Shown piece by piece: positions 33,634 to 59,601 of a DNA stretch of 64,000 nt. How positions within the stretch are numbered: position 1 is the stretch's first letter; every line of letters starts with the position of its first letter. This DNA comes from Candidatus Woesearchaeota archaeon (GTDB lineage Archaea; Nanobdellota; Nanobdellia; Woesearchaeales; ARS49). The translations under genes were made by a program, and so were the position numbers. The stretch spans positions 2,328 to 66,327 of the forward strand of contig JAGVZE010000015.1 of assembly GCA_018302815.1 (NCBI GenBank), in the 5' to 3' direction. The notes beneath the pieces are model-generated. The model made no database searches and was not told the DNA's origin. It saw nothing but the letters and a program-made list of their open reading frames with translations.

Positions 33634-34852
33634 AATGAAAGAACATCTTTGGCTCGCACTGCGCTCTCTTAGCAAACGAAGAAAACGCGCAGCGCTGACA
33701 ATGATAGGCGTCTTCATAGGAATCGCAGCGGTCGTAGCCCTCGTGTCGTTAGGACAGGGACTCTCCAAAACCATCAACGACCAATTCGAGAAAGTCGGAG
33801 CCGACAAGATAATCATACAAGCAAAAGAAAGCGCAGGAGGATTCACAGGAGAAAACGCTCCTGGACAGCTCACCGAAACAGAACTTGACATCGCGCGCAA
33901 AACAAATGGAGTTACCCGAGTCACAGGACAGCTATTTCGCGCGATAAACGTACAGTACAATGACATCCAGCGCACCATGTTTGTGGTCAGCATGCCCCCA
34001 AAAGCGCAGGACGCAGACCTTGCGATAGCAGTCAATACCTGGGAAGCAGAACAAGGCAGAATGCTAACCCACCGAGACAAGCAAAAAGCAGTCATAGGAT
34101 ACAATCTTGCGAATAAGAACACTTTTGTGCGCAATATGCGAATCGGCGATAAAATACTCGTCGGCACAGAACAATTCGAAATCGTAGGCGTACTCAAGCG
34201 AATCGGCGATCCCACTGCTGATGGAGGAATAGTAATGCCAGAAGATGACGCCCGATTAGTTCTCAACGATACGGCGAGCTATTCAATGATAATCGCCCAA
34301 AGCGCGCGAGGAGAGCACCCTGCTGAAGTTGGCGAACGAATCGAGAAAGCAATCAGGCGCGATAGGCATCAAAAAGAAGGCAAAGAAGATTTCACAGTGC
34401 AGACAAGCACGGAACTAATCGCATCATTTAACACAGTCTTCAATATTATTCAAGTAGTGTTCGTTGGCATAGCATCGATAAGCTTGTTAGTAGGAGGCGT
34501 TGGAATAATGAACACAATGTACACTGCAGTTCTCGAGCGAACACGCGAAATAGGAGTCATGAAAGCAATCGGCGCTCGAAACGAAGACATCTTGACGCTC
34601 TTCTTGATAGAAAGCGGCCTTCTTGGATTCGCAGGCGGGCTTGTGGGAGTCATAATCGGAGCAGGAATAAGCAAAATGGTGGAGTTTGGCGCCAACGCGT
34701 CTTTTGGACCGGGGACAATAGTCGCAGTATATCCTTTGTGGCTCGTCCTTGGAAGCCTTCTTTTCAGCACCCTTGTTGGCGCGGTAAGCGGCATCCTTCC
34801 CGCAAGAAGAGGTTCGCATCTTAAACCAGTGGACGCTCTAAGGTCAGAATAG
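33611..34852 (+). CDS. ABC transporter permease, FtsX/MacB-type (paralog)
   Basis: Same architecture and FtsX box (GVGIMNTMYTAVLERTREIGVMKAIGA) as 32419..33633. Overlaps it by 23 nt. Confidence 0.8.
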   Translation: MKRCEATKMKEHLWLALRSLSKRRKRAALTMIGVFIGIAAVVALVSLGQGLSKTINDQFEKVGADKIIIQAKESAGGFTGENAPGQLTETELDIARKTNGVTRVTGQLFRAINVQYNDIQRTMFVVSMPPKAQDADLAIAVNTWEAEQGRMLTHRDKQKAVIGYNLANKNTFVRNMRIGDKILVGTEQFEIVGVLKRIGDPTADGGIVMPEDDARLVLNDTASYSMIIAQSARGEHPAEVGERIEKAIRRDRHQKEGKEDFTVQTSTELIASFNTVFNIIQVVFVGIASISLLVGGVGIMNTMYTAVLERTREIGVMKAIGARNEDILTLFLIESGLLGFAGGLVGVIIGAGISKMVEFGANASFGPGTIVAVYPLWLVLGSLLFSTLVGAVSGILPARRGSHLKPVDALRSE

Positions 34853-34904
34853 TTTTCCTAAATTTGTCATAACGATTAAAAAGGGCCTTACTTTTACGCG
34901 CGCT

Positions 34905-35249
34905 ATGAGCAAATCAAGACGGATGATACTTGACTTTCAAAAAGCGAAAGGCCAAAAAATAGATGACATAATCAGCGAACTTCTTCAAGAACCCTGCAGG
35001 CAAATAAAGGAGATAGTGGTGGCAGAACTTCTTCTTGTGCGCTCTTGGCCCACCGTTGAAACAACAACCGGACAAATGCAAGGAGTTTATCTTAGCCCGT
35101 CAAGAGTGCTAACTCCAAAAGGAATCGTATTGTACGGTTCATGCGATGAAAAAATAATTCCTGAAAGCAAAAGAGAACACTTAGAAGATTATGTTAATTA
35201 TTGCAAAGAAGCAATCGATGCGATACACCTTCTCCAGCAAGGCTTATAA
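34905..35249 (+). CDS. hypothetical protein
   Basis: 114-aa ORF downstream of the permease pair. No motif. Confidence 0.3.
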   Translation: MSKSRRMILDFQKAKGQKIDDIISELLQEPCRQIKEIVVAELLLVRSWPTVETTTGQMQGVYLSPSRVLTPKGIVLYGSCDEKIIPESKREHLEDYVNYCKEAIDAIHLLQQGL

Positions 35250-35272
35250 ATTCGTATTCTCTCCCTTTTTTC

Positions 35273-35671
35273 ATGCCCGTAGCAGAAGAAAACGACATAG
35301 CGACATATCTCGTGCTAGTCAAGTCCTTGAATGCGATACTCACAAACATACGAATTGGACAAGGACCTCTTGATGTCGTTGAGAGCGTGAAAAAACAATT
35401 ACTTGTACTGGATAAGCTGCCACGAGAGGATTTTGATCAAAGGAAAATCTTGGCTGAAGCTCGGCAACGTTTATTTGATTTGTTGAAGGCAGCGGCTTTA
35501 GCCAAAGACAATCGCACGGTGCTTATCGCTTACATAAGAACGCTCGGCATACTCAACGCAAATATCGGCAAGATGATGGCAAACCCGATAGTTCTTGGAC
35601 AACTGCGAGGAGTCCTCACGTCTGCTATGAGCGTACTTGAATCTATGACTCCTATCGGCGCTGGAAAATAG
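35273..35671 (+). CDS. hypothetical helical protein
   Basis: ORF 35201..35671 trimmed to the internal Met (MPVAEEND) to remove overlap with the upstream ORF. No motif. Confidence 0.3.
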   Translation: MPVAEENDIATYLVLVKSLNAILTNIRIGQGPLDVVESVKKQLLVLDKLPREDFDQRKILAEARQRLFDLLKAAALAKDNRTVLIAYIRTLGILNANIGKMMANPIVLGQLRGVLTSAMSVLESMTPIGAGK

Positions 35672-35684
35672 AGTATTTTAGAAT

Positions 35685-36053
35685 TCAAAACAGCTTGACC
35701 CACTCGACGCCTTTCATCGCTTTTATCTTATCTAGTATTTCTTGAGGCAGTTTGCCCCAAACCTCAAAAACATATTGTCCATTCACAGTCGATGGGCCAA
35801 AAGTCCTGCAAAAAAGAAGCTCAACTATCTCTTTTTTAGTCGAAGGCTCATTCATTTGGACGCGAACGAAATATAACTCTTCCTTATCTCTTTTCAATTT
35901 GCGCTCATCTAAAAATTTGTTCAGATGCTCGGGCAGTTCCAATCTGGGAAGGGTTGTGACGTCGCCTCTCCAACCGCAGAATAGGCACTCATCAATATTT
36001 CCAATACGCTTGAATCCGCCCCACAAACAATCAGGGCAATGCTCTGCGCTCAT
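35685..36053 (-). CDS. zinc-ribbon domain protein, tandem paralog 1 of 3
   Basis: N-terminal CPDC...C-x2-CGW zinc ribbon plus about 80-aa C-terminal domain ending GVEWVKLF. ATG at 36053..36051 overlaps the TGA of the upstream paralog by one nucleotide (TGATG). The ORF track extends to TTG at 36059. Confidence 0.55.
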   Translation of the reverse strand: MSAEHCPDCLWGGFKRIGNIDECLFCGWRGDVTTLPRLELPEHLNKFLDERKLKRDKEELYFVRVQMNEPSTKKEIVELLFCRTFGPSTVNGQYVFEVWGKLPQEILDKIKAMKGVEWVKLF

Positions 36054-36430
36054 CACCAAACCTCGACTTTCTCAACGCCCTTCATGTTCTTCAATTCGGC
36101 AAGCATCGCGCTTGTGGGCTTCTTGTTCATCCTCACAATCACGCAGTCTTTGCCATCGCTAGGCGCATTGCCGCAACCATTCACGTGCAGAACGTCAATA
36201 ACATCAAACTGGATGTCCGCTCCAGCCGCATGATAAATTCTCACGTAAAATAATTTGCCTGCTTTTTTTAATGCTCTATCTTGTGCAAGAGATTCAGTCA
36301 CTTCTTCGGTAAGCCACGAACGGAATTGCTCATCGAGTTTCCCTGTCCAGCCGCACATCTGGCACTGATCATTACCATCCGCTTTTTTGAAATTACCGTC
36401 ACTGCAGTAAGGGCAAAATACGCCGCTCAT
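36053..36430 (-). CDS. zinc-ribbon domain protein, tandem paralog 2 of 3
   Basis: CPYC...C-x2-CGW ribbon. C-terminus GVEKVEVW. Same TGATG junction with the upstream paralog, inside the conserved junction sequence GTTTGGTGATGAGCG. Confidence 0.55.
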   Translation of the reverse strand: MSGVFCPYCSDGNFKKADGNDQCQMCGWTGKLDEQFRSWLTEEVTESLAQDRALKKAGKLFYVRIYHAAGADIQFDVIDVLHVNGCGNAPSDGKDCVIVRMNKKPTSAMLAELKNMKGVEKVEVW

Positions 36431-36843
36431 CACCAAACCTCAATACGCTCGATACCTATTATCGTTTTGGCTTTGGCAAGGCTCTCTTCGCTTGGCCTTG
36501 ATTCGAGCCGCATAAGGAATCCGGAAATTCCTGCGGAACTAGAGCTAGAAGAACTGCGCGCGCCAAGAACGTGCATTAACATAAATTCACTGTCATTCGA
36601 CGCATCTTTCTTCAAATAGCCGCGCACGAAAAACAACGCATTCTGCTTTTTTAAATCACGATCGCCTGAAAGCTGTTCGAGCATCTCCATAGTCGGCATT
36701 TTTCTTGGAAGGCGTTCAAAGCTGCCAATCCAGCCGCACATCTGACACTGGTCGTACGGCGATTTGAGACTGCCAAAACAAGGGCCCGCTGTTACGTGCT
36801 TGAAATCGCTCTGACCGCAGTCAGGACACATAGCTCCGCTCAT
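36430..36843 (-). CDS. zinc-ribbon domain protein, tandem paralog 3 of 3 (first in operon)
   Basis: CPDC...C-x2-CGW ribbon, Ser-rich insertion, C-terminus GIERIEVW. ATG at 36843. Confidence 0.55.
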   Translation of the reverse strand: MSGAMCPDCGQSDFKHVTAGPCFGSLKSPYDQCQMCGWIGSFERLPRKMPTMEMLEQLSGDRDLKKQNALFFVRGYLKKDASNDSEFMLMHVLGARSSSSSSSAGISGFLMRLESRPSEESLAKAKTIIGIERIEVW

Positions 36844-36885
36844 AAACCTGGCTCAATATTCTTCCTTTAAATACCCTTTCAATTG

Positions 36886-36902
36886 AACCGAAAGCTTTAT
36901 AA
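36886..36902 (+). promoter_or_regulatory. putative BRE/TATA promoter of DEAD-box helicase leader
   Basis: CGAAAGCTTTATAAGTG contains the TATA-like TTTATAA with a purine-rich BRE-like stretch upstream. It lies about 230 nt upstream of the helicase ATG. Confidence 0.35.
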
Positions 36903-36924
36903 GTGGACTTGAGGCTTATCCTCT

Positions 36925-37129
36925 ATAGAGATAGAAAGGTAGGCAGGTAAAAGCCTGTGTGTAGAGTCTTGTTCTTTTGAACGGGGCTCGCGTGGTACTA
37001 TCTTTCTGTCCACCCGTGTCTGAAATCCGCAGAAAACTATAGCGTCTTGTACGGATTTCCGAACACGTTAGAAACGCCTTGAGCGTTTCCAACGAGTGAA
37101 CCGTCGTTATGCAGGTTCGGAGAACTAAA
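36925..37129 (+). ncRNA. long structured 5' leader (candidate cis-regulatory RNA) of DEAD-box helicase gene
   Basis: About 200-nt noncoding interval with stable hairpins: GAAATCCG...CGGATTTC (8 bp, 37023-37060) and GAAACGC-CTTGA-GCGTTTC (7 bp, 37071-37089). The antisense ORF called here (36916..37347) is implausible. Confidence 0.3.
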
Positions 37130-49567: not shown

Positions 49568-52500
49568 CTATTTGCGTCGCGTTCTTGTTCTTGCGGCGTT
49601 TTCCTGCCATTGCCGCAATCTCTTATCAACCCTCGCTAAGTCCTTTTTAATAGCTAGAAGATCCACGTCTTTTTTGTTCGAGCCTTTTTTACGCCTCGCT
49701 CGAATAAATAAGCCAATCAGTCCCATAATTGCAACGAGAGCCAAAAGTTCAGATGATGCGATTTCCCAAAGACCTGCAGTTATAGAGCCAAGATTGCCCT
49801 GCACTTGTCCTGCCGCAACCGAAAGTCCAGTTGGGTTTTCAACAGTAGCTAGGAATCCTGCCGCCAAGGTTATGATTGTTATGGCCAGCGCATTCAATGT
49901 TTTACGCGCAATAGGTTTGTCCAGTTTTCGCAGCTCTATGATGACCATTCCATCAGCTATTTGTTTCACTTTGACAGTCATATCGTCCTTGCCATCATTG
50001 TCTGCGTCGATGAACGCCCATCGTTTTGGCATCAATCGCAGTTGTTTACCAGAAACGCTAAATGTGGCGCAGTTCTTTGCCACTCGCTCGATGTGTAGTT
50101 CGGTTCGAACATCATTTACCGTGAACAGCACGCGGTCTTTAACACGAAGCGCAACAGTAGTCATAACGCTTCCTGCAAGGCGGAATGTTCGAGCTCTGTG
50201 CCGCGTAGATACCTTTTCGTCTTTCTTGCGATTGTATGCCAAGTAATACGCGATGAACAGGATAACTGCCAAAACAATGAGTGAACTCCAACCACTGCCA
50301 AATCCGTTCTCCTGATCCGAAGTTTTCCTATCTAACGCGCGGCCCACCATCTCTCCTATGTCTTTATTCAACGCTCCGGCCGGAGTTTCTCTGTTTAGCA
50401 CATTGGTTGCCTTAACATCATCCGCACTGTTTTTATTCGTGAAGAATCCTGCAGAGTCAGATTTTGTCAGTTCGAGGAGCAGCGATGCTTTCGCCTTTTC
50501 CACGCCAAGCAAAGTCACTTTCAAATCGCGCAAACCATCCGCGTTCAAGTCAACATCAATAGTCTGTCCAGGATATATCGCGAATTCCTGCAATGGATCC
50601 TTGGTTCTGAACCAGACAGGAAGAACTGATGATTCTAGCATTATCAATGAGAATTCTTGCTCGGGAGTCCTAATAATCACCTTATCGAGTTTGCCAAGAT
50701 AGGGCGTTGTGAAATTACCTGCGCTCATGCTGTACGTTTTCGCCTGTCCGCCTGCGCCACCGCCCCCTCCGCCCCCACCAGAACGTCCAGAGCCTGCTGA
50801 AGCGCCCTGTTGGACTGAGAACGCGCTAAATGCGTTAGTTTGGATTGTGAACGTGTCAGCACTTTTGTTTTGTACTGCTGCGTGAGAACTCCATGTTCCT
50901 TCGCACGTTCGCGTTGTGAAATTCCAATTCGCACATTTAACTATGCTTAGCAAATCTTCATTCGTGTAACCAGAACCGGCATAACTTATCACCAGTTCTG
51001 CTGACGTGAAATTGTACGTGCTGTTGAAACCATACGTTATTAGGAAATCTTCAACGGAAGTAAGGTCGACCCCGAGAGTATCATTGTCAAATATCGATAG
51101 GTTGATAGAGTTCAATCTTGTGAGGAGTGCCCCTCCAAACTGAGTGTAGAATAAATCGTATACTATATCAGAAATCTCTTCAGTTGTAGTTCCGTTGAAA
51201 ATCTGCAAGTCTATTCTAGTATTTGTGCTGGCCAGGAATACAGTTAAGTTTGATTCAATCCCATTAAGAGTGCTGTTAACGACATTGAAAGTAATATTCC
51301 TTCTCAAAGTACCTGCGAAGAACAGGTCAATCACAGGAACCACTCCTAGCGTTCCGTTTACCCAGTATGTGATGTTGTGCCGGCCAGGAATCACCACGGT
51401 GTACGCAGTCGGAGATGGAAGAACAATTATTGTTCCATTGGGCAAAGTAATGTTAACGAGCACCGGAACGCCATTTGCGGTCCCGTTAAGCGACACGTTT
51501 TGCCCTACAATAGGATCGTATGGGCTCGTCGTAGCGTTAATAATTGGAACACCACCTATCACGGTGATATTCGCAACGTGCGTGACATTGCTGTTGCCGG
51601 CACTATCATTTATCGTCATGTTAAGCGTATAATTTCCGGGAGTGAGATTCGCAGGAATAGTGAAATTTATCGGCAGCTGCGAACTGCTGTTAATCGTAAT
51701 CGGACCCTGAACCACCGTAACATTTCCTGAGCTGTTGTATAGAATGAATGTTATGTTTATCGGGAACTCACTGCTAGTGAAGTTCACTGAAACATTCTCT
51801 TCAGACTGGTTGTTGATTATTGGTGATTGAGGACTTGTCGTGACATTCGTAATGTTTGGAGGCGCATTCTCTGAAACGTTAAACGAGGTCTGCGTGTCGT
51901 TCACATTCCCGCTCGTGTCATTTGCTATGAATGTGACGTTATATTGCCCTGATAGGTTAGGAATCAGGAACGAAGCATTATACTTGCTCCCGGCCGCAAA
52001 TGAAAGGTTGATTATCTGAGTCGTGCCATTCGGAAACGTTATATTGGCAACAACTTTGTCAACCGCAACATTATCAGTCACATTCACGCTTATCTCAATC
52101 GTCTGGCTCTTGTTGAACGTAGCATTCGGCCGCGGGTCAAAAATGAGCGGAGGCATGATGTCAACAACTGTTATGTTCGCGACGTGAACCTCCACATTGT
52201 TGCCATTCGAATCGTTCACAGTCATATTGAGCGTGTAATTCCCAATGCTCAGGTTCGCAGGAATTGTGAAGTTAATAGGCAGGTCTGAACTGCTGTTCAC
52301 CTGCGTTGGGCCCTGAACAACGATAACGCTTCCAGTGCTATTGTACAATATGAAAGTCACATTAATCGGGAACTCACTGCTCGTGAAGTTCACCGAGACA
52401 TTTTGCTCAGACTGATTGTTCGTTATCGGCGAAGCAGGACTTGTCGTAATGTTTGTGTGCGGAACCGCAAAAGACGCGTTATATTTGTTTCCAACGGCAA

Positions 52501-54115
52501 GCGACAAGTTGACAATCATGCTCGTACCATTCGGGAATGTTATGTTCGCGCGCACTGAATTCACGCCAATGTTGTCAGTCACGTTCGCAGCTATCTCAAT
52601 CGTCTGGCTCGTGTTGAATGTCGAATTCGCAGAAGGACGGACATCGAAAACGAGCGGCGCACTTATGTCTGTCACGTCAAAGAAACCCGTCTCAGTATTG
52701 TTTGAATTGCCCGTCGTGTCGTTCGCCAAAATCCTGAACGTATATGTTCCGTTTAGCTCTGGAGTCGTGAAATTCGCGCTGTACTTGGTCCCATTTTCCA
52801 AAAACAGCTGGATGAGCTGGAACGTGCCGTTGGGGAAGCTGACATTAACAAAGACCGAACCTATGCCAATATTATCAGTCACATTCGCCGACAAGGTTAT
52901 GTTCTGATTCGTGGCAAAATTCGTGCCGTTCATCGGCTGCAAGTCAATAACCTGCGGAGGCTCGCCGTCAGCAGACACGAAAAATGTAGTTTGCGTATTG
53001 TTGAGATTGCCGCTTGTATCGTTCGCGATGAATGTGATGTTGTATTGCCCTGTGAGGTTTGGCACGGTGAATGACGCGTTGTACTTGTTTCCTGCGGCAA
53101 GCGTTAAGTTGATTATTTGGGAGGTTCCGTTGGGGAATGTTATGTTCGCGCGCACAGTGCTTACCTGCACGTTGTCTGTCACGTTCGCTGATATCTCTAT
53201 CGTATCGCTCGTGTTGAATGAGGAGTTTTGCGCTGGGCGAACATCGAAAACGAGCGGAGGAGTGATGTCTATTACTGTTATGTTTGCGACGTGAACCTCC
53301 ACATTGTTGCCGTTCGAATCGTTCACAGTCATATTGAGCGTGTAATTCCCAATGTTCAGGTTCGCAGGAATTGTGAAGTTAATAGGCAGGTCTGAACTGC
53401 TGTTCACCTGCGTTGGGCCCTGAACAACGATAACGCTTCCTGTGCTATTGTACAATATGAAAGTCACATTGATCGGGAACTCATCGCTTGTGAAATTCAC
53501 AGTCACATTCTGAACACTTTGATTGTTAGTTATGGGCGAACCAGGACTTGTTGTAACATTTGTGATATTCGGAGCCCTAAAGTCGCTTGCGACAAAGAAC
53601 GAGGTAGTAGAACCGTTAATGTTTCCGCTGGTGTCGTTTGCGATGAATGTGATGTTGTATTGACCTGTTAGGTTTGGTATGCTGAATGATGAGTTGTACT
53701 TGTTTCCTGTTGTGATCGTCAGGTTTATGAGTTGTGATGTGCCATTGGGGAATGTGATGTTCGCCTGGACAACTCCAACTTGAACGTTGTCGGTCACGTT
53801 CGCAGATATCTCAATAGTGTCGCTCGTGTTGAATGTCGAGTTCGCAGAAGGGCGGACATCGAATACGAGCGGAGGAGTAATGTCGATGACCGTGATGTTC
53901 GCAACGTGCGTCTCAATGCTGTTGCCATTCGAATCATTCACAGTCATATTCAAGACGTAAGTTCCAATGCTAAGATTCGCAGGAATGGTGAAGTTTATCG
54001 GCAACTGTCCGCTGCTGTTGATTTGCGTTGGGCCCTGCACTACGATGACTGCTCCAGTACTGTTATAAAGAATGAACGTAACATTAATCGGGAACTCACT
54101 GCTCGTGAAGTTCAC
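49568..54115 (-). CDS. giant surface adhesin-like protein, C-terminal portion (repeat modules, Gly-rich linker, C-terminal TM anchor)
   Basis: Repeated about 95-aa modules (ANITFPNGT...VTDN...). Extreme density of N-x-S/T sequons. GGGGGGGAGG linker. C-terminal hydrophobic anchor (LLALVAIMGLIGLFI) plus RARRKKG tail. Begins with the same module that ends the upstream ORF. Confidence 0.75.
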   Translation of the reverse strand: MNFTSSEFPINVTFILYNSTGAVIVVQGPTQINSSGQLPINFTIPANLSIGTYVLNMTVNDSNGNSIETHVANITVIDITPPLVFDVRPSANSTFNTSDTIEISANVTDNVQVGVVQANITFPNGTSQLINLTITTGNKYNSSFSIPNLTGQYNITFIANDTSGNINGSTTSFFVASDFRAPNITNVTTSPGSPITNNQSVQNVTVNFTSDEFPINVTFILYNSTGSVIVVQGPTQVNSSSDLPINFTIPANLNIGNYTLNMTVNDSNGNNVEVHVANITVIDITPPLVFDVRPAQNSSFNTSDTIEISANVTDNVQVSTVRANITFPNGTSQIINLTLAAGNKYNASFTVPNLTGQYNITFIANDTSGNLNNTQTTFFVSADGEPPQVIDLQPMNGTNFATNQNITLSANVTDNIGIGSVFVNVSFPNGTFQLIQLFLENGTKYSANFTTPELNGTYTFRILANDTTGNSNNTETGFFDVTDISAPLVFDVRPSANSTFNTSQTIEIAANVTDNIGVNSVRANITFPNGTSMIVNLSLAVGNKYNASFAVPHTNITTSPASPITNNQSEQNVSVNFTSSEFPINVTFILYNSTGSVIVVQGPTQVNSSSDLPINFTIPANLSIGNYTLNMTVNDSNGNNVEVHVANITVVDIMPPLIFDPRPNATFNKSQTIEISVNVTDNVAVDKVVANITFPNGTTQIINLSFAAGSKYNASFLIPNLSGQYNVTFIANDTSGNVNDTQTSFNVSENAPPNITNVTTSPQSPIINNQSEENVSVNFTSSEFPINITFILYNSSGNVTVVQGPITINSSSQLPINFTIPANLTPGNYTLNMTINDSAGNSNVTHVANITVIGGVPIINATTSPYDPIVGQNVSLNGTANGVPVLVNITLPNGTIIVLPSPTAYTVVIPGRHNITYWVNGTLGVVPVIDLFFAGTLRRNITFNVVNSTLNGIESNLTVFLASTNTRIDLQIFNGTTTEEISDIVYDLFYTQFGGALLTRLNSINLSIFDNDTLGVDLTSVEDFLITYGFNSTYNFTSAELVISYAGSGYTNEDLLSIVKCANWNFTTRTCEGTWSSHAAVQNKSADTFTIQTNAFSAFSVQQGASAGSGRSGGGGGGGGAGGQAKTYSMSAGNFTTPYLGKLDKVIIRTPEQEFSLIMLESSVLPVWFRTKDPLQEFAIYPGQTIDVDLNADGLRDLKVTLLGVEKAKASLLLELTKSDSAGFFTNKNSADDVKATNVLNRETPAGALNKDIGEMVGRALDRKTSDQENGFGSGWSSLIVLAVILFIAYYLAYNRKKDEKVSTRHRARTFRLAGSVMTTVALRVKDRVLFTVNDVRTELHIERVAKNCATFSVSGKQLRLMPKRWAFIDADNDGKDDMTVKVKQIADGMVIIELRKLDKPIARKTLNALAITIITLAAGFLATVENPTGLSVAAGQVQGNLGSITAGLWEIASSELLALVAIMGLIGLFIRARRKKGSNKKDVDLLAIKKDLARVDKRLRQWQENAARTRTRRK

Positions 54116-54142: not shown

Positions 54143-54218
54143 CGTTATCGGCGAAGCAGGACTTGTCGTAATGTTTGTGTCGTTATCGGCGAAGCAGGAC
54201 TTGTCGTAATGTTTGTGA
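54143..54218 (-). repeat. 38-bp tandem duplication (2 copies) that frameshifts the giant surface-protein gene
   Basis: CGTTATCGGCGAAGCAGGACTTGTCGTAATGTTTGTG(T/A) occurs twice in tandem (54143-54180, 54181-54218). The paralogous module at about 52402-52440 has one copy. 38 is not divisible by 3. The upstream ORF stops at 54145 and the downstream ORF restarts at 54115. Confidence 0.7.
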
Positions 54219-57200
54219 CATTCGGCGCAGAAACATCCTGCGCGATAACTGTGAAATTCGCGCTCAGGAACGTCTGCTTCGGGAATGTTATCGTCTTTGC
54301 AGTTCTGTTCACCACGCTCTCATTAGTTATGTTGAAAGTTCCTGTCGAATTCGTGATAGCCACAAAGAATACGAAATCGCTGTCATTGCCCGGTATGTAC
54401 GCGGAATAATCCGTGAAAACAGTCACGTTCTCGATTCGCACGTTTGCAGTGAATATGGTGAACACGCTGATGTCCCATCGTTTCAATCCTGTGGTGTTTA
54501 CCGCCAAAAGCTCGTCATCACGCAGAGCATCCTTGTGCCTAACTTCAGCAGTTTCATTCACTATGGTGAATGGCGGCACAACTTCAGTGTCATACACTAT
54601 AACATCGTCAGTTAGGACTGTCACAAGCTCAGGAGCTCCAAGCGACGCGTTATCAGTCGCCCATAACTGGCCTGTTGAATTATAAACACGCACTGTGTTG
54701 TTAATCACGCTTGGCTTGTATTGAGAGAGAGTCTCCAAAACGTTGAAATATCTAAGGAAAAGCGACGTATTCAACGAATTATTCAGCTGAGCGGTGTGAT
54801 TTATTGTAATGTTCAGCGTGCTTTGCGGCCCCATGGTGTAGTTTGGCTCTGACTGCCTAAACGCAATCTGCGTCGCTGTGATCTGCGATGGCTGGGCGTG
54901 GAATACTTCAATGCTTGCCGGCTCATCCGAATAGTTATAGAATAATGTCACGTTGATTGTAGTGTTCGACAAAAGGAGCGGCGAGGCGCTGCACCTGACG
55001 CTTAGCGCAAGGAAATTGTTCTGGTCTATCGTGGCTCCATTTATTGAGACGTTCTGCTCGATCACGCTCGGAGAGGTTGAAGCGGTTGAATTTCCGCAGG
55101 ACTCAAAAATATTCTCCAAATTCGTGTTGAGAATGTGGAAGCATAACTGCGGATCGCACGTGTCGTTTTGTGAAACAGACAAATTCAGCCTCAATGCCGC
55201 GTTTCCAAGGAAAGTGTAAACCCTCAGGAAGCTGCAGTTCACATCAGTGTTTGAGCCGCAGAAGAAAAAGTCCGCCAGCGAAACATTCGTCGCGTTCGGC
55301 GAGAGAGCGACTTCAAATGAACGATTCAGCACAGTCGAAGTGTTAGGCTCATCTTTAGATAACCACGTGGTAGAGTTCGATATATTGCTCCCATCGCCTC
55401 CGAAAAGAATGTTGCGCGTCTCTATCAGGTAATTGAGCCAGATGATATTCGCGCTTGTCGAGTTCGTCGCATTTGAATAACTCGCGTCAGAGCACGTTGC
55501 AGTGAAGCTCGTGTTCGCAAATTCTCTGAACGTGTCCAGCGAGCCAGTATAGTTGCCTGTGCTCGCGTTGAACGTCAGCGCAGTTGTGATTGCGGTGTTA
55601 TTTGAAACTACTGAACACGTTCCTGTGCTTATCGAACTATTAGTCAAAACGTCAAAGAAGCGAACCTGGAACGGTATGTAAAATTTGATGCCAAAGTCAG
55701 GATTCTCCTCTGCGGTCGCGGCAGTTCCTTGCAGATACGTCGTCTGATTAATTGAAATCGCAAGCGCGCTCAATCCGGTCACGGTAAAGTTTGTCTGCGC
55801 AGTGTTATTGACATTTCCGAACGTGTCATTCGCTATGAACGTCACATTGTACGTTCCGGCGATGGAGGGAATGACAAAAGAGGCGTTGAAATACGAACCG
55901 CTCAAATTCGTAAGGTTCACAACGTAAATTGTTCCATTCGGGAATGTGATGTTCGCGGTGACGTTTTCTATCGCGTAGTTATCGGTAACATTGGCAGCTA
56001 TCTCTATTGTGCTTGCGGCGGAAAATGACGAATTCACCGCAGGACTTATCGCAGTCACTTGAGGGTAAATCAAGTCAACAACATTGAACGTCCTTGAAGT
56101 CACAAGAGAATTATCGGATGAATCGTAAACAAATATCGTCCAAGTGCCAAGATTATGCGATATGTTCGTCGCGAGCTCATCATCAACAGTCCCGTTAACA
56201 TCCACTGAAATGTTCGCGCTAGTCCTTGTTTGATTCACACCATCGAACCACACAAAGAAAATACTCGATATACCCTGCAAGTTGAATGAGCGAGCGTAAA
56301 TCGTGCTGAAAATCTCAAAAGACTCGGAAAGTGTGGTTCGCGCGGAATCATTGAAGACCGAAACACCGCGCGGAGTAGTGTTTATAGTGATATTGCGAGA
56401 AATGGCAGAATCCACTGATGAATTCGCGAACACACGGGTGAATTCATTATCGCTCAAGGTAACATTGTTCGGAACATCAATACGCACATACAACGTGCTT
56501 TTGCCGCCGAATGGAGCTAATGATCCAACGTCCACAACCGTGTCGCCATCAGTGTCGGTGAGCGCGACAAAATCATCATTAACAAATGTCGCGTTCCAGC
56601 CTTCTATTTGATTGAAGCTGAAATCTATTGCGTCGGACTGATTTCCATTATTTGTGACATTCAATTGGAAATAATTCCTTGTGCCTGCAGTTACTGATGT
56701 GGTGTAGTTTTGGACAAGGATCAATCTATCAAGAATGGTCGTGGTCATCGTGGCATTCGTGAAAATAGCAGAATTGACTGAAGAATTCAATCTGATCGTA
56801 GTGGTATCATTTGTGCCTATGCTTGTTCCCCCTGGGACTTGGATGCGAACAATGATATTTTTTGAATCACCAAAAGTCATGCTGCCAGTGTCTATACTTC
56901 CATCACTGTTCGTGTCAGTTAGTAGAGTGCCGTTCGCGAAAAGAACGGTGATGGTCCAGTTATTGGCGGATGTCGTGTTCACATTCAAAATATCGCTGAA
57001 CGCCTGGAAATTGTACACGGTGAAATTGAATGATACGCTAAGGCCCGCTGAGCCGTTAGCGGACTGATTTTTTGGACTGATGGCGATATCGCTGCTAACT
57101 GTCGTAATATCAGTCACGGTTTTGTTATCTCCGCTTGAAGCGGCAGTGATGTTTCTTGTATCAACAGTACCAGTAGTTGCTGAAACTGGGACATTTAGTC

Positions 57201-59601
57201 GCACTATGAGTGTCGTGAAATTGTCAGCGCCCAAATTCAGATTCGGCCGGCCGTTAGCATCGCTATCCGTGATGATTGATTCATTCGCAAAAGGATAGAA
57301 AAACGTCGCATTCCACGTTTGCGTGGAGGAGTTCATCAATTGAACAACTGTTTGATTATTTCCGCAGTTCATCAAGTCATGCGCGTAAAACACAGTGGTC
57401 CCGTTCCTAACCGCTTTCGCCTGATCTGGCCTGAACAAAAGGAACGAGCTTGACGCAACAAGAACCCCGCCCACGTTATCCTGCAATTGGGTTGGAAGAT
57501 TCGTTCCAGAGCCCTGTCCAACAGCAGCTTTGAAGTTGAGAGGTGAAGGACCTGAGAAACCCAAACTGCTCCAGGGAATTCGTCCTTCGAGTTCAGTTCC
57601 TGCAAGAGAACCTCCAGTTATGCCGCTTTCGACTGTTGTGTTGAGCGCGATTCCTCCAGGCATATCAAATCCATCACCAAGCATAGGATCAGATGTATTT
57701 GCAGGCAAATAATTGTACACATCAGAATCGTAATTTCGCGTTGAACCGCTCCAGACGAATTTCGCCACTCTGTCGGTCGCACTCATCGCGGCATCGAGAT
57801 TCTTGTCCACGTAGACTATGGCGGAAATTTGATTCCTTCCGAATGCTAAACGACCGAAATAAAAGTACAAGTTTGTGTTATCATACGTGTACGCGAATTT
57901 GGTCATATCCCTATCAGACGTTCCGGGCACGTCAGGATCGCCCTGAAGCAATGTAAGATCAGTCACAAAATTATTCGGATTTGTAAGAACGCCATCCCAA
58001 TCGGTCAGTACACCATTTATAGTTATATTCGCGGTCGTCACTGATCCTGCAGACCCGCTAATTTCAGAACAAGAAGGGACTATGCTGTCAATCACTGATA
58101 AAGTGGTTGAGCTAGTACTATTGGATCCGCTTGTATCATTGAAGTGTAAAGTGTAATTCCAAAGCCCCAAGAAAAACGTATTTGGAGTTATCACTATATC
58201 CTGCCCCGAAGTCCACGATCTTGGACCATCAAAAACAGTGCCATTTCTGGTCACCGTGTACGTTCCGCCTGTTCCATTAAGCTGCCAGCGAATCGAGGCA
58301 TCACTTCCAATCTCCACTGTCTGATTCGCAGGACTTGAAGATCCTAGCGATTGAGATGAATATGACACATTGAAAAAGAAAACGTCCCATTCAATATCCT
58401 TGTTTCCTCCGACAGTACGCTGAAGCTCCGCGTACGCCTGAGAATCATTATTGCCTGATCCGAAGAAGTTCGCGCAAGTCCAACTTTTTGAAGCAGTCAC
58501 GTTTTGGCATACAATTCCCGGATTCGCAGAAACACCAGGACAAGTGGTGTTCACCGCGGTGAAATTAGTTCCATTCTGATTACTGACTGCGATAGTGCAG
58601 TTCACAGGAGAAAGACCGGTAGCTCCCCACCATTCAATACAAAGCGATACGCTTTGAATGGACTGGCAATCAGCAATGCTTGAGTTGCGCTGAACAAATC
58701 TTACTCCGCCGAAAGCGTTCGCGTTGCTTGCCTGATGAATCTCAGTCAAACCATCATTGCAGCGCAGCAAATCAGCTCCCGCCCCGCAAGCGGCTGAAGG
58801 ATAAACACCATCACACGCAGTCGACCAAGCATTCGAAGCCACCAAGTCCTCTGCGACGCACGTCGTGATGCTTTCGGCAAAACCGGGATCGTCAGCCGTC
58901 AAAATAAACGAGTATTCTTCGCCCGGTACGATGTCCATCAATTTCACCCATTCGCCCAAGCAACTTTGAGAAGCAAAATCCCACTCCTTGCATTTGTGAA
59001 GAACAGTTCCCTTCGCCAACGCAGTCACAATTCCACTGCTAAAATTCAGAGAAGTCGGATTTATAGCGTACACTTCTTTGAATCGAGCTAATTCGCCTGT
59101 TTCTTGAACATCGTCAATGCCAATAACATCATTCTCTTCGCTTGTCAAGAACGCATCATACAATTCAATTTTTTGAATGGACATTCTTTGCGGCTCTAAA
59201 ACGACATCATATATTCCGCTTTGGACGCTACGAGCGCTTCGCGAAACGCGCACGTTTCCTAGGATGGCTTCTTGCCTGCTATTTTTCATCGTAAGCAAAG
59301 GCGTATCGGGCTTCGGATTTGTTTCGCTCGCGGCAGTAGAAAGAGCAGTAAGATCGTCGATAGAGCATTTTTCGCATTGAATGTCAACAGACTCGTTCAA
59401 ATCAGCGATTGTTTGACCGGTAATAGTATCAAAGTTTGATATTGCGACAAGACTGCCTATGAATAATATTGCAAGAAGTAAAACATGAGTGAACTTGAAT
59501 CGTTTTTTAGAATAATCACTAGCTTGAGATACTCTCGCGTCTCTTTTTTCATAAACATACTGATTAGTATGCTCGTCCATATACTCTTTTTGATGCGCCA
59601 C
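54145..59601 (-). CDS. giant surface adhesin-like protein, N-terminal portion (signal anchor plus repeat modules)
   Basis: N-terminal signal anchor (FKFTHVLLLAILFIGSLVAISNF). 1818 aa of beta-rich Asn/Thr/Ser-rich sequence with the same ANITFPNGT/VTDN modules as the downstream ORF. Together the two parts give about 3,330 aa. Confidence 0.75.
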   Translation of the reverse strand: MAHQKEYMDEHTNQYVYEKRDARVSQASDYSKKRFKFTHVLLLAILFIGSLVAISNFDTITGQTIADLNESVDIQCEKCSIDDLTALSTAASETNPKPDTPLLTMKNSRQEAILGNVRVSRSARSVQSGIYDVVLEPQRMSIQKIELYDAFLTSEENDVIGIDDVQETGELARFKEVYAINPTSLNFSSGIVTALAKGTVLHKCKEWDFASQSCLGEWVKLMDIVPGEEYSFILTADDPGFAESITTCVAEDLVASNAWSTACDGVYPSAACGAGADLLRCNDGLTEIHQASNANAFGGVRFVQRNSSIADCQSIQSVSLCIEWWGATGLSPVNCTIAVSNQNGTNFTAVNTTCPGVSANPGIVCQNVTASKSWTCANFFGSGNNDSQAYAELQRTVGGNKDIEWDVFFFNVSYSSQSLGSSSPANQTVEIGSDASIRWQLNGTGGTYTVTRNGTVFDGPRSWTSGQDIVITPNTFFLGLWNYTLHFNDTSGSNSTSSTTLSVIDSIVPSCSEISGSAGSVTTANITINGVLTDWDGVLTNPNNFVTDLTLLQGDPDVPGTSDRDMTKFAYTYDNTNLYFYFGRLAFGRNQISAIVYVDKNLDAAMSATDRVAKFVWSGSTRNYDSDVYNYLPANTSDPMLGDGFDMPGGIALNTTVESGITGGSLAGTELEGRIPWSSLGFSGPSPLNFKAAVGQGSGTNLPTQLQDNVGGVLVASSSFLLFRPDQAKAVRNGTTVFYAHDLMNCGNNQTVVQLMNSSTQTWNATFFYPFANESIITDSDANGRPNLNLGADNFTTLIVRLNVPVSATTGTVDTRNITAASSGDNKTVTDITTVSSDIAISPKNQSANGSAGLSVSFNFTVYNFQAFSDILNVNTTSANNWTITVLFANGTLLTDTNSDGSIDTGSMTFGDSKNIIVRIQVPGGTSIGTNDTTTIRLNSSVNSAIFTNATMTTTILDRLILVQNYTTSVTAGTRNYFQLNVTNNGNQSDAIDFSFNQIEGWNATFVNDDFVALTDTDGDTVVDVGSLAPFGGKSTLYVRIDVPNNVTLSDNEFTRVFANSSVDSAISRNITINTTPRGVSVFNDSARTTLSESFEIFSTIYARSFNLQGISSIFFVWFDGVNQTRTSANISVDVNGTVDDELATNISHNLGTWTIFVYDSSDNSLVTSRTFNVVDLIYPQVTAISPAVNSSFSAASTIEIAANVTDNYAIENVTANITFPNGTIYVVNLTNLSGSYFNASFVIPSIAGTYNVTFIANDTFGNVNNTAQTNFTVTGLSALAISINQTTYLQGTAATAEENPDFGIKFYIPFQVRFFDVLTNSSISTGTCSVVSNNTAITTALTFNASTGNYTGSLDTFREFANTSFTATCSDASYSNATNSTSANIIWLNYLIETRNILFGGDGSNISNSTTWLSKDEPNTSTVLNRSFEVALSPNATNVSLADFFFCGSNTDVNCSFLRVYTFLGNAALRLNLSVSQNDTCDPQLCFHILNTNLENIFESCGNSTASTSPSVIEQNVSINGATIDQNNFLALSVRCSASPLLLSNTTINVTLFYNYSDEPASIEVFHAQPSQITATQIAFRQSEPNYTMGPQSTLNITINHTAQLNNSLNTSLFLRYFNVLETLSQYKPSVINNTVRVYNSTGQLWATDNASLGAPELVTVLTDDVIVYDTEVVPPFTIVNETAEVRHKDALRDDELLAVNTTGLKRWDISVFTIFTANVRIENVTVFTDYSAYIPGNDSDFVFFVAITNSTGTFNITNESVVNRTAKTITFPKQTFLSANFTVIAQDVSAPNVTNITTSPASPITTQTLRQVLLRR

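Follow-up and report, generated by a model that had tools for sequence, protein, structure and literature searches.

DPANN archaea have tiny genomes in which very few regulators can be recognized, and much of their proteome is labeled "hypothetical." Here, we describe three tandem genes, which we call A, B, and C, from a stretch of DPANN archaeal DNA (Candidatus Woesearchaeota archaeon, assembly GCA_018302815.1, contig JAGVZE010000015.1, positions 2,328 to 66,327; the whole stretch of 64,000 nucleotides [nt] that was analyzed is referred to as the window), and we compare them with the closest described systems. NikR is a nickel-responsive repressor in which a ribbon-helix-helix (RHH) module is joined to an ACT-like C-terminal domain (C-domain) that tetramerizes and binds ligand. 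Among the archaeal "feast/famine" regulators of the Lrp/AsnC family, paralogs such as FL11 and DM1 assemble into mixed, amino acid-responsive oligomers. Members of the CPxCG-related class possess two Cys/His patterns 7–40 residues apart, at least one of which is CPxCG-like (Tarasov et al. 2008, PMC2253796); the class is defined by motif alone, its detailed analysis was restricted to proteins of <100 amino acids (aa), most likely single-domain, and one of its zinc finger proteins, Brz of Halobacterium salinarum, is a transcription regulator (PMC2253796). Finally, experiments in an archaeon and a bacterium have demonstrated strict coupling of termination and reinitiation at ATGA/TGATG (-4/-1) gene overlaps (PMC6728339, PMC10666635), and -1/-4 overlaps are enriched among genes for the subunits of heteromeric complexes (PMC10666635).

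We lean somewhat toward the view that A, B, and C form a coupled operon for a hetero-oligomer assembled co-translationally, perhaps one that regulates in response to a ligand; the coupling, the assembly, the zinc binding, the ligand sensing, and the regulatory role are all things that we infer. All three genes lie on the minus strand and start with ATG: gene A at 36843..36430 (137 aa; GenBank MBS3148654.1, J4219_07250), gene B at 36430..36053 (125 aa; MBS3148653.1, J4219_07245), and gene C, the last of the array, at 36053..35685 (122 aa; MBS3148652.1, J4219_07240). In GenBank, where the source is a Candidatus Woesearchaeota archaeon metagenome-assembled genome (MAG), the product name of each is hypothetical protein. 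The original prediction had described three tandem minus-strand zinc-ribbon paralogs, and this is borne out by the open reading frames (ORFs) together with full-length matches to a family hidden Markov model (HMM). Each protein begins MS(G/A)xxCPxC, followed by a second knuckle, CxxCGW, giving the zinc-ribbon motifs CPDC...CQMCGW in A, CPYC...CQMCGW in B, and CPDC...CLFCGW in C, and each ends in the pattern G(V/I)E(R/K/W)(I/V)(E/K)(V/L)(W/F), which reads GIERIEVW in A, GVEKVEVW in B, and GVEWVKLF in C. Gene A also has a 10-aa insert in the zinc ribbon and a Ser-rich loop in the ferredoxin-like C-domain. Pairwise protein identity is 39% for A and B, 31% for A and C, and 27% for B and C, with a nucleotide identity of 45–51%; because each protein matches the family HMM over its full length (profile positions 1–128; expect values [E] of 1e-37 for A, 3e-40 for B, and 2e-29 for C), their homology to each other is far above chance.

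The same triplet is found on two metagenomic contigs, L001, which has a scaffold gap inside copy C, and L002 (other loci that carry family members are cited below by numbers of the same form). When the window genes are compared with their relatives in L002, which are ~88% identical, the ratio of nonsynonymous to synonymous substitution rates (dN/dS) is 0.17 for A, 0.09 for B, and 0.12 for C (dS 0.23–0.66). Because of these values, A, B, and C can all be taken as functional coding genes under purifying selection, with no decaying duplicate among them.

The genes overlap by 1 nt, as had been noticed at the outset: TGATG stands at both junctions, with the final base of the stop codon serving as the first base of the next ATG. 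The original prediction had also drawn attention to an identical junction sequence, and the identical stretch proves to be longer than was stated there, namely 18 nt. This 18-mer, GAGGTTTGGTGATGAGCG, occupies positions 36424-36441 at junction A/B and 36047-36064 at junction B/C, both on the minus strand, and comprises the E-V-W codons, the TGA/ATG overlap, and the M-S codons, with a Shine–Dalgarno (SD)-like GAGGT at 36437-36441 and 36060-36064, respectively. One might be tempted to read the identity as a sign that the unit that duplicated included the junction, as was originally supposed, but present-day constraint explains it better. The best explanation is three stacked constraints rather than a relic of duplication. 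The first is that GAG GTT TGG codes for E-V-W at the end of the conserved last β-strand; the second is the SD-like GAGGT itself, which lies inside these codons and 6 nt upstream of the next ATG; and the third is that ATGAGCGG codes for the M-S-G start found family-wide, with the same DNA recurring in distant relatives. A further long identical run, of 16 nt over the QMCGW codons, is common to A and B; the junction identity is therefore no unique signature, and long runs mark conserved motifs rather than the footprint of a duplication.

SD-like 5-mers are not restricted to the triplet. They are found at -20 to -3 in 19 of the 66 genes of the window (29%), versus 3.8% of random positions, mostly in front of operon-internal genes and typically in the form GAGGTG, 5–8 nt before the start. 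The internal junctions of a four-copy array in a distant relative (L014) have GGAGGTG or GAGGT at the equivalent place, whereas array-terminal genes have no SD-like motif in their last codons; gene C ends AAG CTG TTT TGA, and L014d and L3b are similar. By analogy, a fixed stoichiometry of the A, B, and C products is a reasonable inference, because -1/-4 overlaps have been published as strictly coupling and as enriched in heteromeric subunits. The coupled gene pairs of Huber et al. (2019, 2023) are likewise co-directional, overlap by TGATG (-1) or ATGA (-4), and carry an SD inside the upstream gene; they differ in that their coupling was shown experimentally, whereas the window triplet is known from its sequence, and in that the paralogs here are chained two to four in a row.

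A putative archaeal promoter for the operon, GGGTATTTAAAGG, lies at 36864..36876 on the minus strand and contains a TATA box, TATTTAAA (36866-36873, minus strand), 23–30 nt upstream of the gene A ATG. The TATA box and its purine-rich 5′ flank are kept in L001 and L002, while the spacer down to the gene A ATG diverges. In the window, a TATA box (TTTAAA, TTTATAA, or TATTTAAA) precedes the ATG of most first genes by ~30 nt, implying leaderless mRNAs; similarly, the position of the box in front of gene A and its conservation in L001 and L002 make it probable that the A-B-C mRNA is leaderless or near-leaderless. Genes B and C would thus be reachable only via internal initiation or reinitiation. On the other side of the operon, a T-rich stretch, CTCTATTTTCC (35663..35673, minus strand; 12–22 nt after the gene C stop), is a possible, weak candidate for an archaeal oligo-T terminator, to judge by its letters alone.

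In the explanation that we favor, A, B, and C would be a self-contained three-gene operon with one TATA promoter and a near-leaderless mRNA. Gene A would be translated from the mRNA 5′ end, and ribosomes terminating at the stop codon of A (TGA), and afterward at that of B, would reinitiate at the overlapping ATG, aided by the SD-like GAGGT in the E-V-W codons of the upstream gene. The outcome would be three anciently diverged paralogs made in near-equimolar amounts at one place, where their ACT-like domains would oligomerize into a hetero-oligomer displaying several zinc ribbons with basic helices. Such a complex may bind nucleic acid, or the transcription/translation machinery, in response to a small ligand, which would be the NikR and Lrp/AsnC principle with another kind of reading head.

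No more than a handful of relatives of these proteins came up in word-indexed searches, and a locus search with a narrower alignment found three genomic and two metagenomic loci. Of the 103 proteins that an exhaustive profile search of 1.84 billion representatives returned at E<1e-3, about 65 (counted as 50%-identity representatives) are full length, with 115–139 aa and an identical architecture; the remainder comprise fragments and unrelated bacterial proteins with multiple zinc ribbons. The family profile was built from alignment A3, and conservation was scored over 53 sequences. The consensus is MSGPxCPDCG...CxxCGWxG..LPRKxL..E....(charged helix)..GKLFFxR............L..........KP..E......KGVxxVxV, in which the four Cys are invariant, the W and G are conserved at 96% and 98%, and the L, R, P, and GV are also conserved. 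The CPxC...CxxCGWxG, GKLFFxR, KP, and GVxxVxV motifs are present in A, B, and C, except that C has KL for KP. Named carriers are Woesearchaeota and Thermoplasmatota MAGs, and the GC content of the host contigs lies between 29% and 71%.

The original prediction could not place the C-domain in a known family, and curated collections do not place it either. Pfam, NCBIfam, PADLOC, and PHROG models gave no family match beyond sub-threshold matches to generic zinc ribbons; against PDB sequences, the whole-family profile retrieved generic zinc ribbons only (RpoM/TFS, eIF5, aIF2-beta, and ribosomal zinc-ribbon proteins), and the C-domain profile retrieved nothing at E<0.1. Two candidate kinships were considered and rejected. 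The first, to aEF-1beta or HMA, is suggested by the "..GV..V.V" C-terminus, but no member has an EF1_GNE or HMA profile match. The second, to UPF0148/COG1645 (Auto_anti-p27 in Pfam), is suggested by the name that the Joint Genome Institute gives to relative P0008; 4 of the 53 members match, with a best E of ~1e-3, below the Pfam threshold and over the zinc ribbon only, and A, B, and C are not among them.

An AlphaFold2 model of the gene B protein, made from an 8-sequence alignment, has a predicted local distance difference test (pLDDT) score of 90 and a predicted template modeling (pTM) score of 0.81. In this model, a zinc-ribbon hairpin is followed by a charged helix (42-56) and then by a ferredoxin-like beta-alpha-beta-beta-alpha-beta plait, with elements at E61-67, H74-81, short strands 86-93, E96-101, H107-114, and E119-124. 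When the model was searched against the PDB with Foldseek, NikR came first (E 1e-3), followed by Lrp/AsnC proteins and ACT domains; the ACT domain 3ibw gave a template modeling (TM) score of 0.57–0.61 over the C-domain, which is a similarity to a model only. With this fold as modeled, the family is best described as a rare, uncurated archaeal one that would have a new architecture, a zinc ribbon plus an ACT-like plait. Natural fusions also exist: P0076 (209 aa) consists of a zinc ribbon and two C-domains, and P0089 (397 aa) of two such units.

How, then, do these proteins compare with the systems described above? A, B, and C lie outside NikR, Lrp/AsnC, the Pfam ACT families, and UPF0148, because a defining feature of each was looked for and is absent. 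Among solved structures, NikR proteins match best (Foldseek E 1e-3 to 1e-2), and they are similar in size, at ~130 aa; both have a small N-terminal binding module, a helix, and a beta-alpha-beta-beta-alpha-beta C-domain. In the A/B/C family, however, the N-terminus is a four-Cys zinc ribbon with no RHH profile match, there is no match to Pfam NikR_C, and no His/Cys metal site is conserved in the C-domain (after residue 30, neither His nor Cys reaches ≥50% in any column). The C-domain fold also comes near the RAM domain of Lrp/AsnC regulators and of stand-alone archaeal RAM proteins (weak matches, with E about 1e-2, to 2gqq of E. coli Lrp and to PH1519/PH0061 of Pyrococcus), and the mixed oligomers of Lrp/AsnC paralogs are what we propose for A, B, and C. 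In contrast to Lrp/AsnC, the family possesses no winged helix-turn-helix and no Pfam HTH_AsnC or AsnC_trans_reg/RAM match, and the linker and zinc ribbon are unrelated. With the ACT superfamily, the B model shares the beta-alpha-beta-beta-alpha-beta fold, but a curated ACT-clan profile match is missing. The CPxCG motif is present in all three proteins (CPDCG...CQMCG in A, CPYCS...CQMCG in B, and CPDCL...CLFCG in C), with 23 residues between the patterns in A and 13 in B and C; in contrast to the proteins analyzed for that class, A, B, and C are 122–137 aa long and have an extra, confidently modeled domain of ~70 aa. Brz has no sequence homology with A, B, and C beyond the cysteines; by analogy, its role as a transcription regulator supports our regulatory guess.

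Every locus that was fetched was scanned with the family HMM, and arrays were found in five independent lineages: the window (with L001/L002), L014, L003, L004/L005, and L010. The arrangement in related genomes, which the original prediction had singled out for checking, is therefore a triplet in L001/L002 and arrays of two or four in distant relatives. In L014 (5597-7183), four copies are chained by ATGA, TTGA (with a TTG start), and ATGA overlaps; owing to the TTG start, copies 3 and 4 are truncated in the public gene calls, to 83 and 98 aa, respectively. L003 has two copies with a TGATG overlap, L004/L005 two copies with a GTGA overlap, and L010 two copies 75 nt apart, the second of which has its own SD. 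Neither of the things that would speak against the original prediction was found: the C-domain has no confident homology to a well-characterized family, and arrays are present in relatives (L001/L002, L003, L010, L004, and L014).

In a weakly resolved neighbor-joining (NJ) tree, L014 a/b group with window A/B, L16, L4a, and L10b, and L014 c/d fall with single-copy genes of Thermoplasmatota and, less tightly, with window C, so that array-mates are not throughout the closest relatives of one another. Arrays thus seem to bring together subtypes that diverged long ago, a pattern more in keeping with hetero-oligomers than with recent amplification. The original prediction had likewise favored old diversification over recent amplification, and the 27–39% identity, the purifying selection, and the separate NJ branches of A/B and C all agree with it.

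We observed that in L004 (1135-1500) and L005, the C-domain of the second copy is out of frame with its zinc ribbon. The shift is seen in two assemblies of one organism of 71% GC and may be genuine, mark a pseudogene, or stem from a sequencing error common to both.

The same survey bears on a different explanation, one that we find doubtful, in which the paralogs are independent homo-oligomeric regulators or sensors of differing specificity, coupled only for co-regulation and forming no mixed complex. A single copy is present in nine lineages (L006, L007, L008, L011, L016, L018, L019, L020, and L022), which is about two-thirds of the loci examined, and the protein can thus work without paralogous partners; one Thermoplasmatota genome even has two dispersed copies (L006 and L018, both JANQNL01). 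Overlaps, moreover, are ordinary in the window, where there are about six other -4 stop/start overlaps whatever the function of the genes. What this explanation does not account for is that overlapping arrays of 2–4 copies recur in distant lineages and mix diverged subtypes, that several such domains are fused in one chain in P0076 and P0089, and that genes for heteromeric subunits show a statistical excess of short overlaps (PMC10666635).

The genes that surround the family are diverse. At the window locus, the triplet is flanked by a divergent DEAD-box helicase gene and two convergent small genes; at other loci, the neighbors include DJ-1/PfpI, MsrB, an M48 peptidase, GH57, and aCPSF1 with the proteasome. 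One subclade has an unrelated gene upstream of the family member, with an ATGA overlap between the two. One such upstream partner, of 294–296 aa, has a hydrophobic segment, a basic tail, and no Pfam match (L003 5763-6653 and L019 4120-5004); both of these Woesearchaeota-like loci lie downstream of proteasome and aCPSF1 genes. Another, of 126–169 aa, has the motif GLKEYTE...PKSGAGHDF and again no Pfam match (L020/21, at 2296-2805 in L020; L022 3418-3798; and L009 ~969-1223).

These partnerships are the reason to keep in mind a serious if rather unlikely rival, namely that the protein is a zinc-ribbon adaptor or a redox (zinc-thiolate) switch that pairs with the product of the gene immediately upstream (a paralog in arrays, an unrelated protein elsewhere), with a role in stress response or proteostasis rather than as a nucleic-acid-binding regulator. 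Besides the two kinds of upstream partner (L003 and L019; L020/21, L022, and L009), it draws on DJ-1/PfpI 2 nt upstream in L004/5, on MsrB overlapping downstream in L016, on an M48/HtpX-type peptidase 24 nt upstream in L018, and on a thioredoxin within 6 kb in L014; furthermore, the four invariant Cys could form a redox-labile zinc site. The stress-related neighbors, however, are found at only 3–4 of ~14 independent loci and are different each time, the window locus has none, and searches of Pfam, NCBIfam, and PDB sequences revealed no similarity to known zinc redox switches.

Pairwise comparison of the window with L001 shows a mosaic of identity around a tract at 34700-36970. The flanks (37170-36971 and about 34700-33883) are 100% identical, whereas the 2.3-kb tract, which spans A, B, C, the two convergent small genes, and the 3′ end of a permease gene, is 77–99% identical per 100-nt bin and ~88% identical overall. 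There seem, then, to be two old haplotypes of the tract in otherwise identical backgrounds, and recombination import, balancing selection, or mixed-strain assembly could each have given rise to them. If two old haplotypes do circulate in this way, as a divergent tract within identical flanks would suggest, the triplet might be strain-variable island cargo (e.g., a toxin-antitoxin, defense, or symbiont-host module) rather than a housekeeping regulator. We consider this very improbable: there is no PADLOC defense model or PHROG match; a dN/dS of 0.09–0.17 signifies purifying and not diversifying selection; no integrase, transposase, or repeats lie beside the tract; the tract and the window are close in GC content (46.8% and 44.9%); and the mosaic could equally stem from ordinary homologous recombination or mixed-strain assembly.

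Returning to the coupled hetero-oligomer, several observations weigh against it and should temper its use. Since single-copy loci are the majority, family members cannot all depend on hetero-oligomerization. Similarity to solved folds is weak, with E about 1e-3 and a whole-chain TM of 0.35–0.4, and the ACT, ACT_4-7, RAM, and NikR_C Pfam profiles match 0 of the 53 members at E<=0.1. The beta-alpha-beta-beta-alpha-beta plait is among the commonest folds, and "ACT-like" therefore does not establish ligand sensing. The proteins are near-neutral, with an isoelectric point (pI) of 6.1–7.6 and a family median of 6.3, and are not clearly basic like many DNA binders. The AlphaFold2 model of the fusion P0076 leaves the first (extra) C-domain at pLDDT<50. 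Lastly, no conserved functional neighborhood was found across the family loci examined, and most of the neighbors have no Pfam match.

The gain from this analysis is a compact, confidently foldable family that has no curated model and recurs in chained paralog arrays. If its members do form a ligand-responsive hetero-oligomer, this would be a new regulator architecture for archaea and a clean natural case of stoichiometry control by chained termination-reinitiation, with the SD encoded in a conserved C-terminal beta-strand. If they do not, it is another uncharacterized small-protein family that deserves a Pfam entry and would not surprise specialists. A broader proposal, which we put forward only tentatively and think unlikely to hold, is that the family represents a new class of archaeal combinatorial sensors or transcription regulators, in which chained arrays of 2–4 paralogs set the composition of mixed ACT-like oligomers with zinc-ribbon reading heads; this would be a new type of transcription factor in DPANN and Thermoplasmatota.

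Some further features of the locus can be recorded. The two convergent small genes are on the plus strand at 34905..35249 (114 aa) and 35273..35671 (132 aa), and neither has a Pfam match; both adjoin the triplet in L001/L002 too and were not found near family members at other loci. Upstream of gene A, a junction-like sequence (TTGAG..GGTTTATGAGCGG) was considered as the relic of a pseudogene and rejected, as no upstream frame is open or similar. The 209-nt spacer between gene A and the DEAD-box helicase gene (36900-37108; the helicase gene is at 37109..38395, plus strand) has unusually strong predicted folding on both strands, with z = -5.4 on the minus and -4.2 on the plus strand and 0 of 200 shuffles folding as well, in the form of two adjacent predicted hairpins (37019-37062 and 37063-37097). 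An Rfam search of this spacer found no match, and a conserved noncoding RNA upstream of the operon was rejected, as the 100% identity there is explained by the flank of the recombination tract. A second TATA-like element lies at 36894-36903, between gene A and the helicase gene; as a helicase promoter it could give rise to a long structured 5′ leader, while most genes here look leaderless. Elsewhere in the window, two very large ORFs lie side by side on the minus strand, at 49568..54115 (1515 aa) and 54145..59601 (1818 aa).

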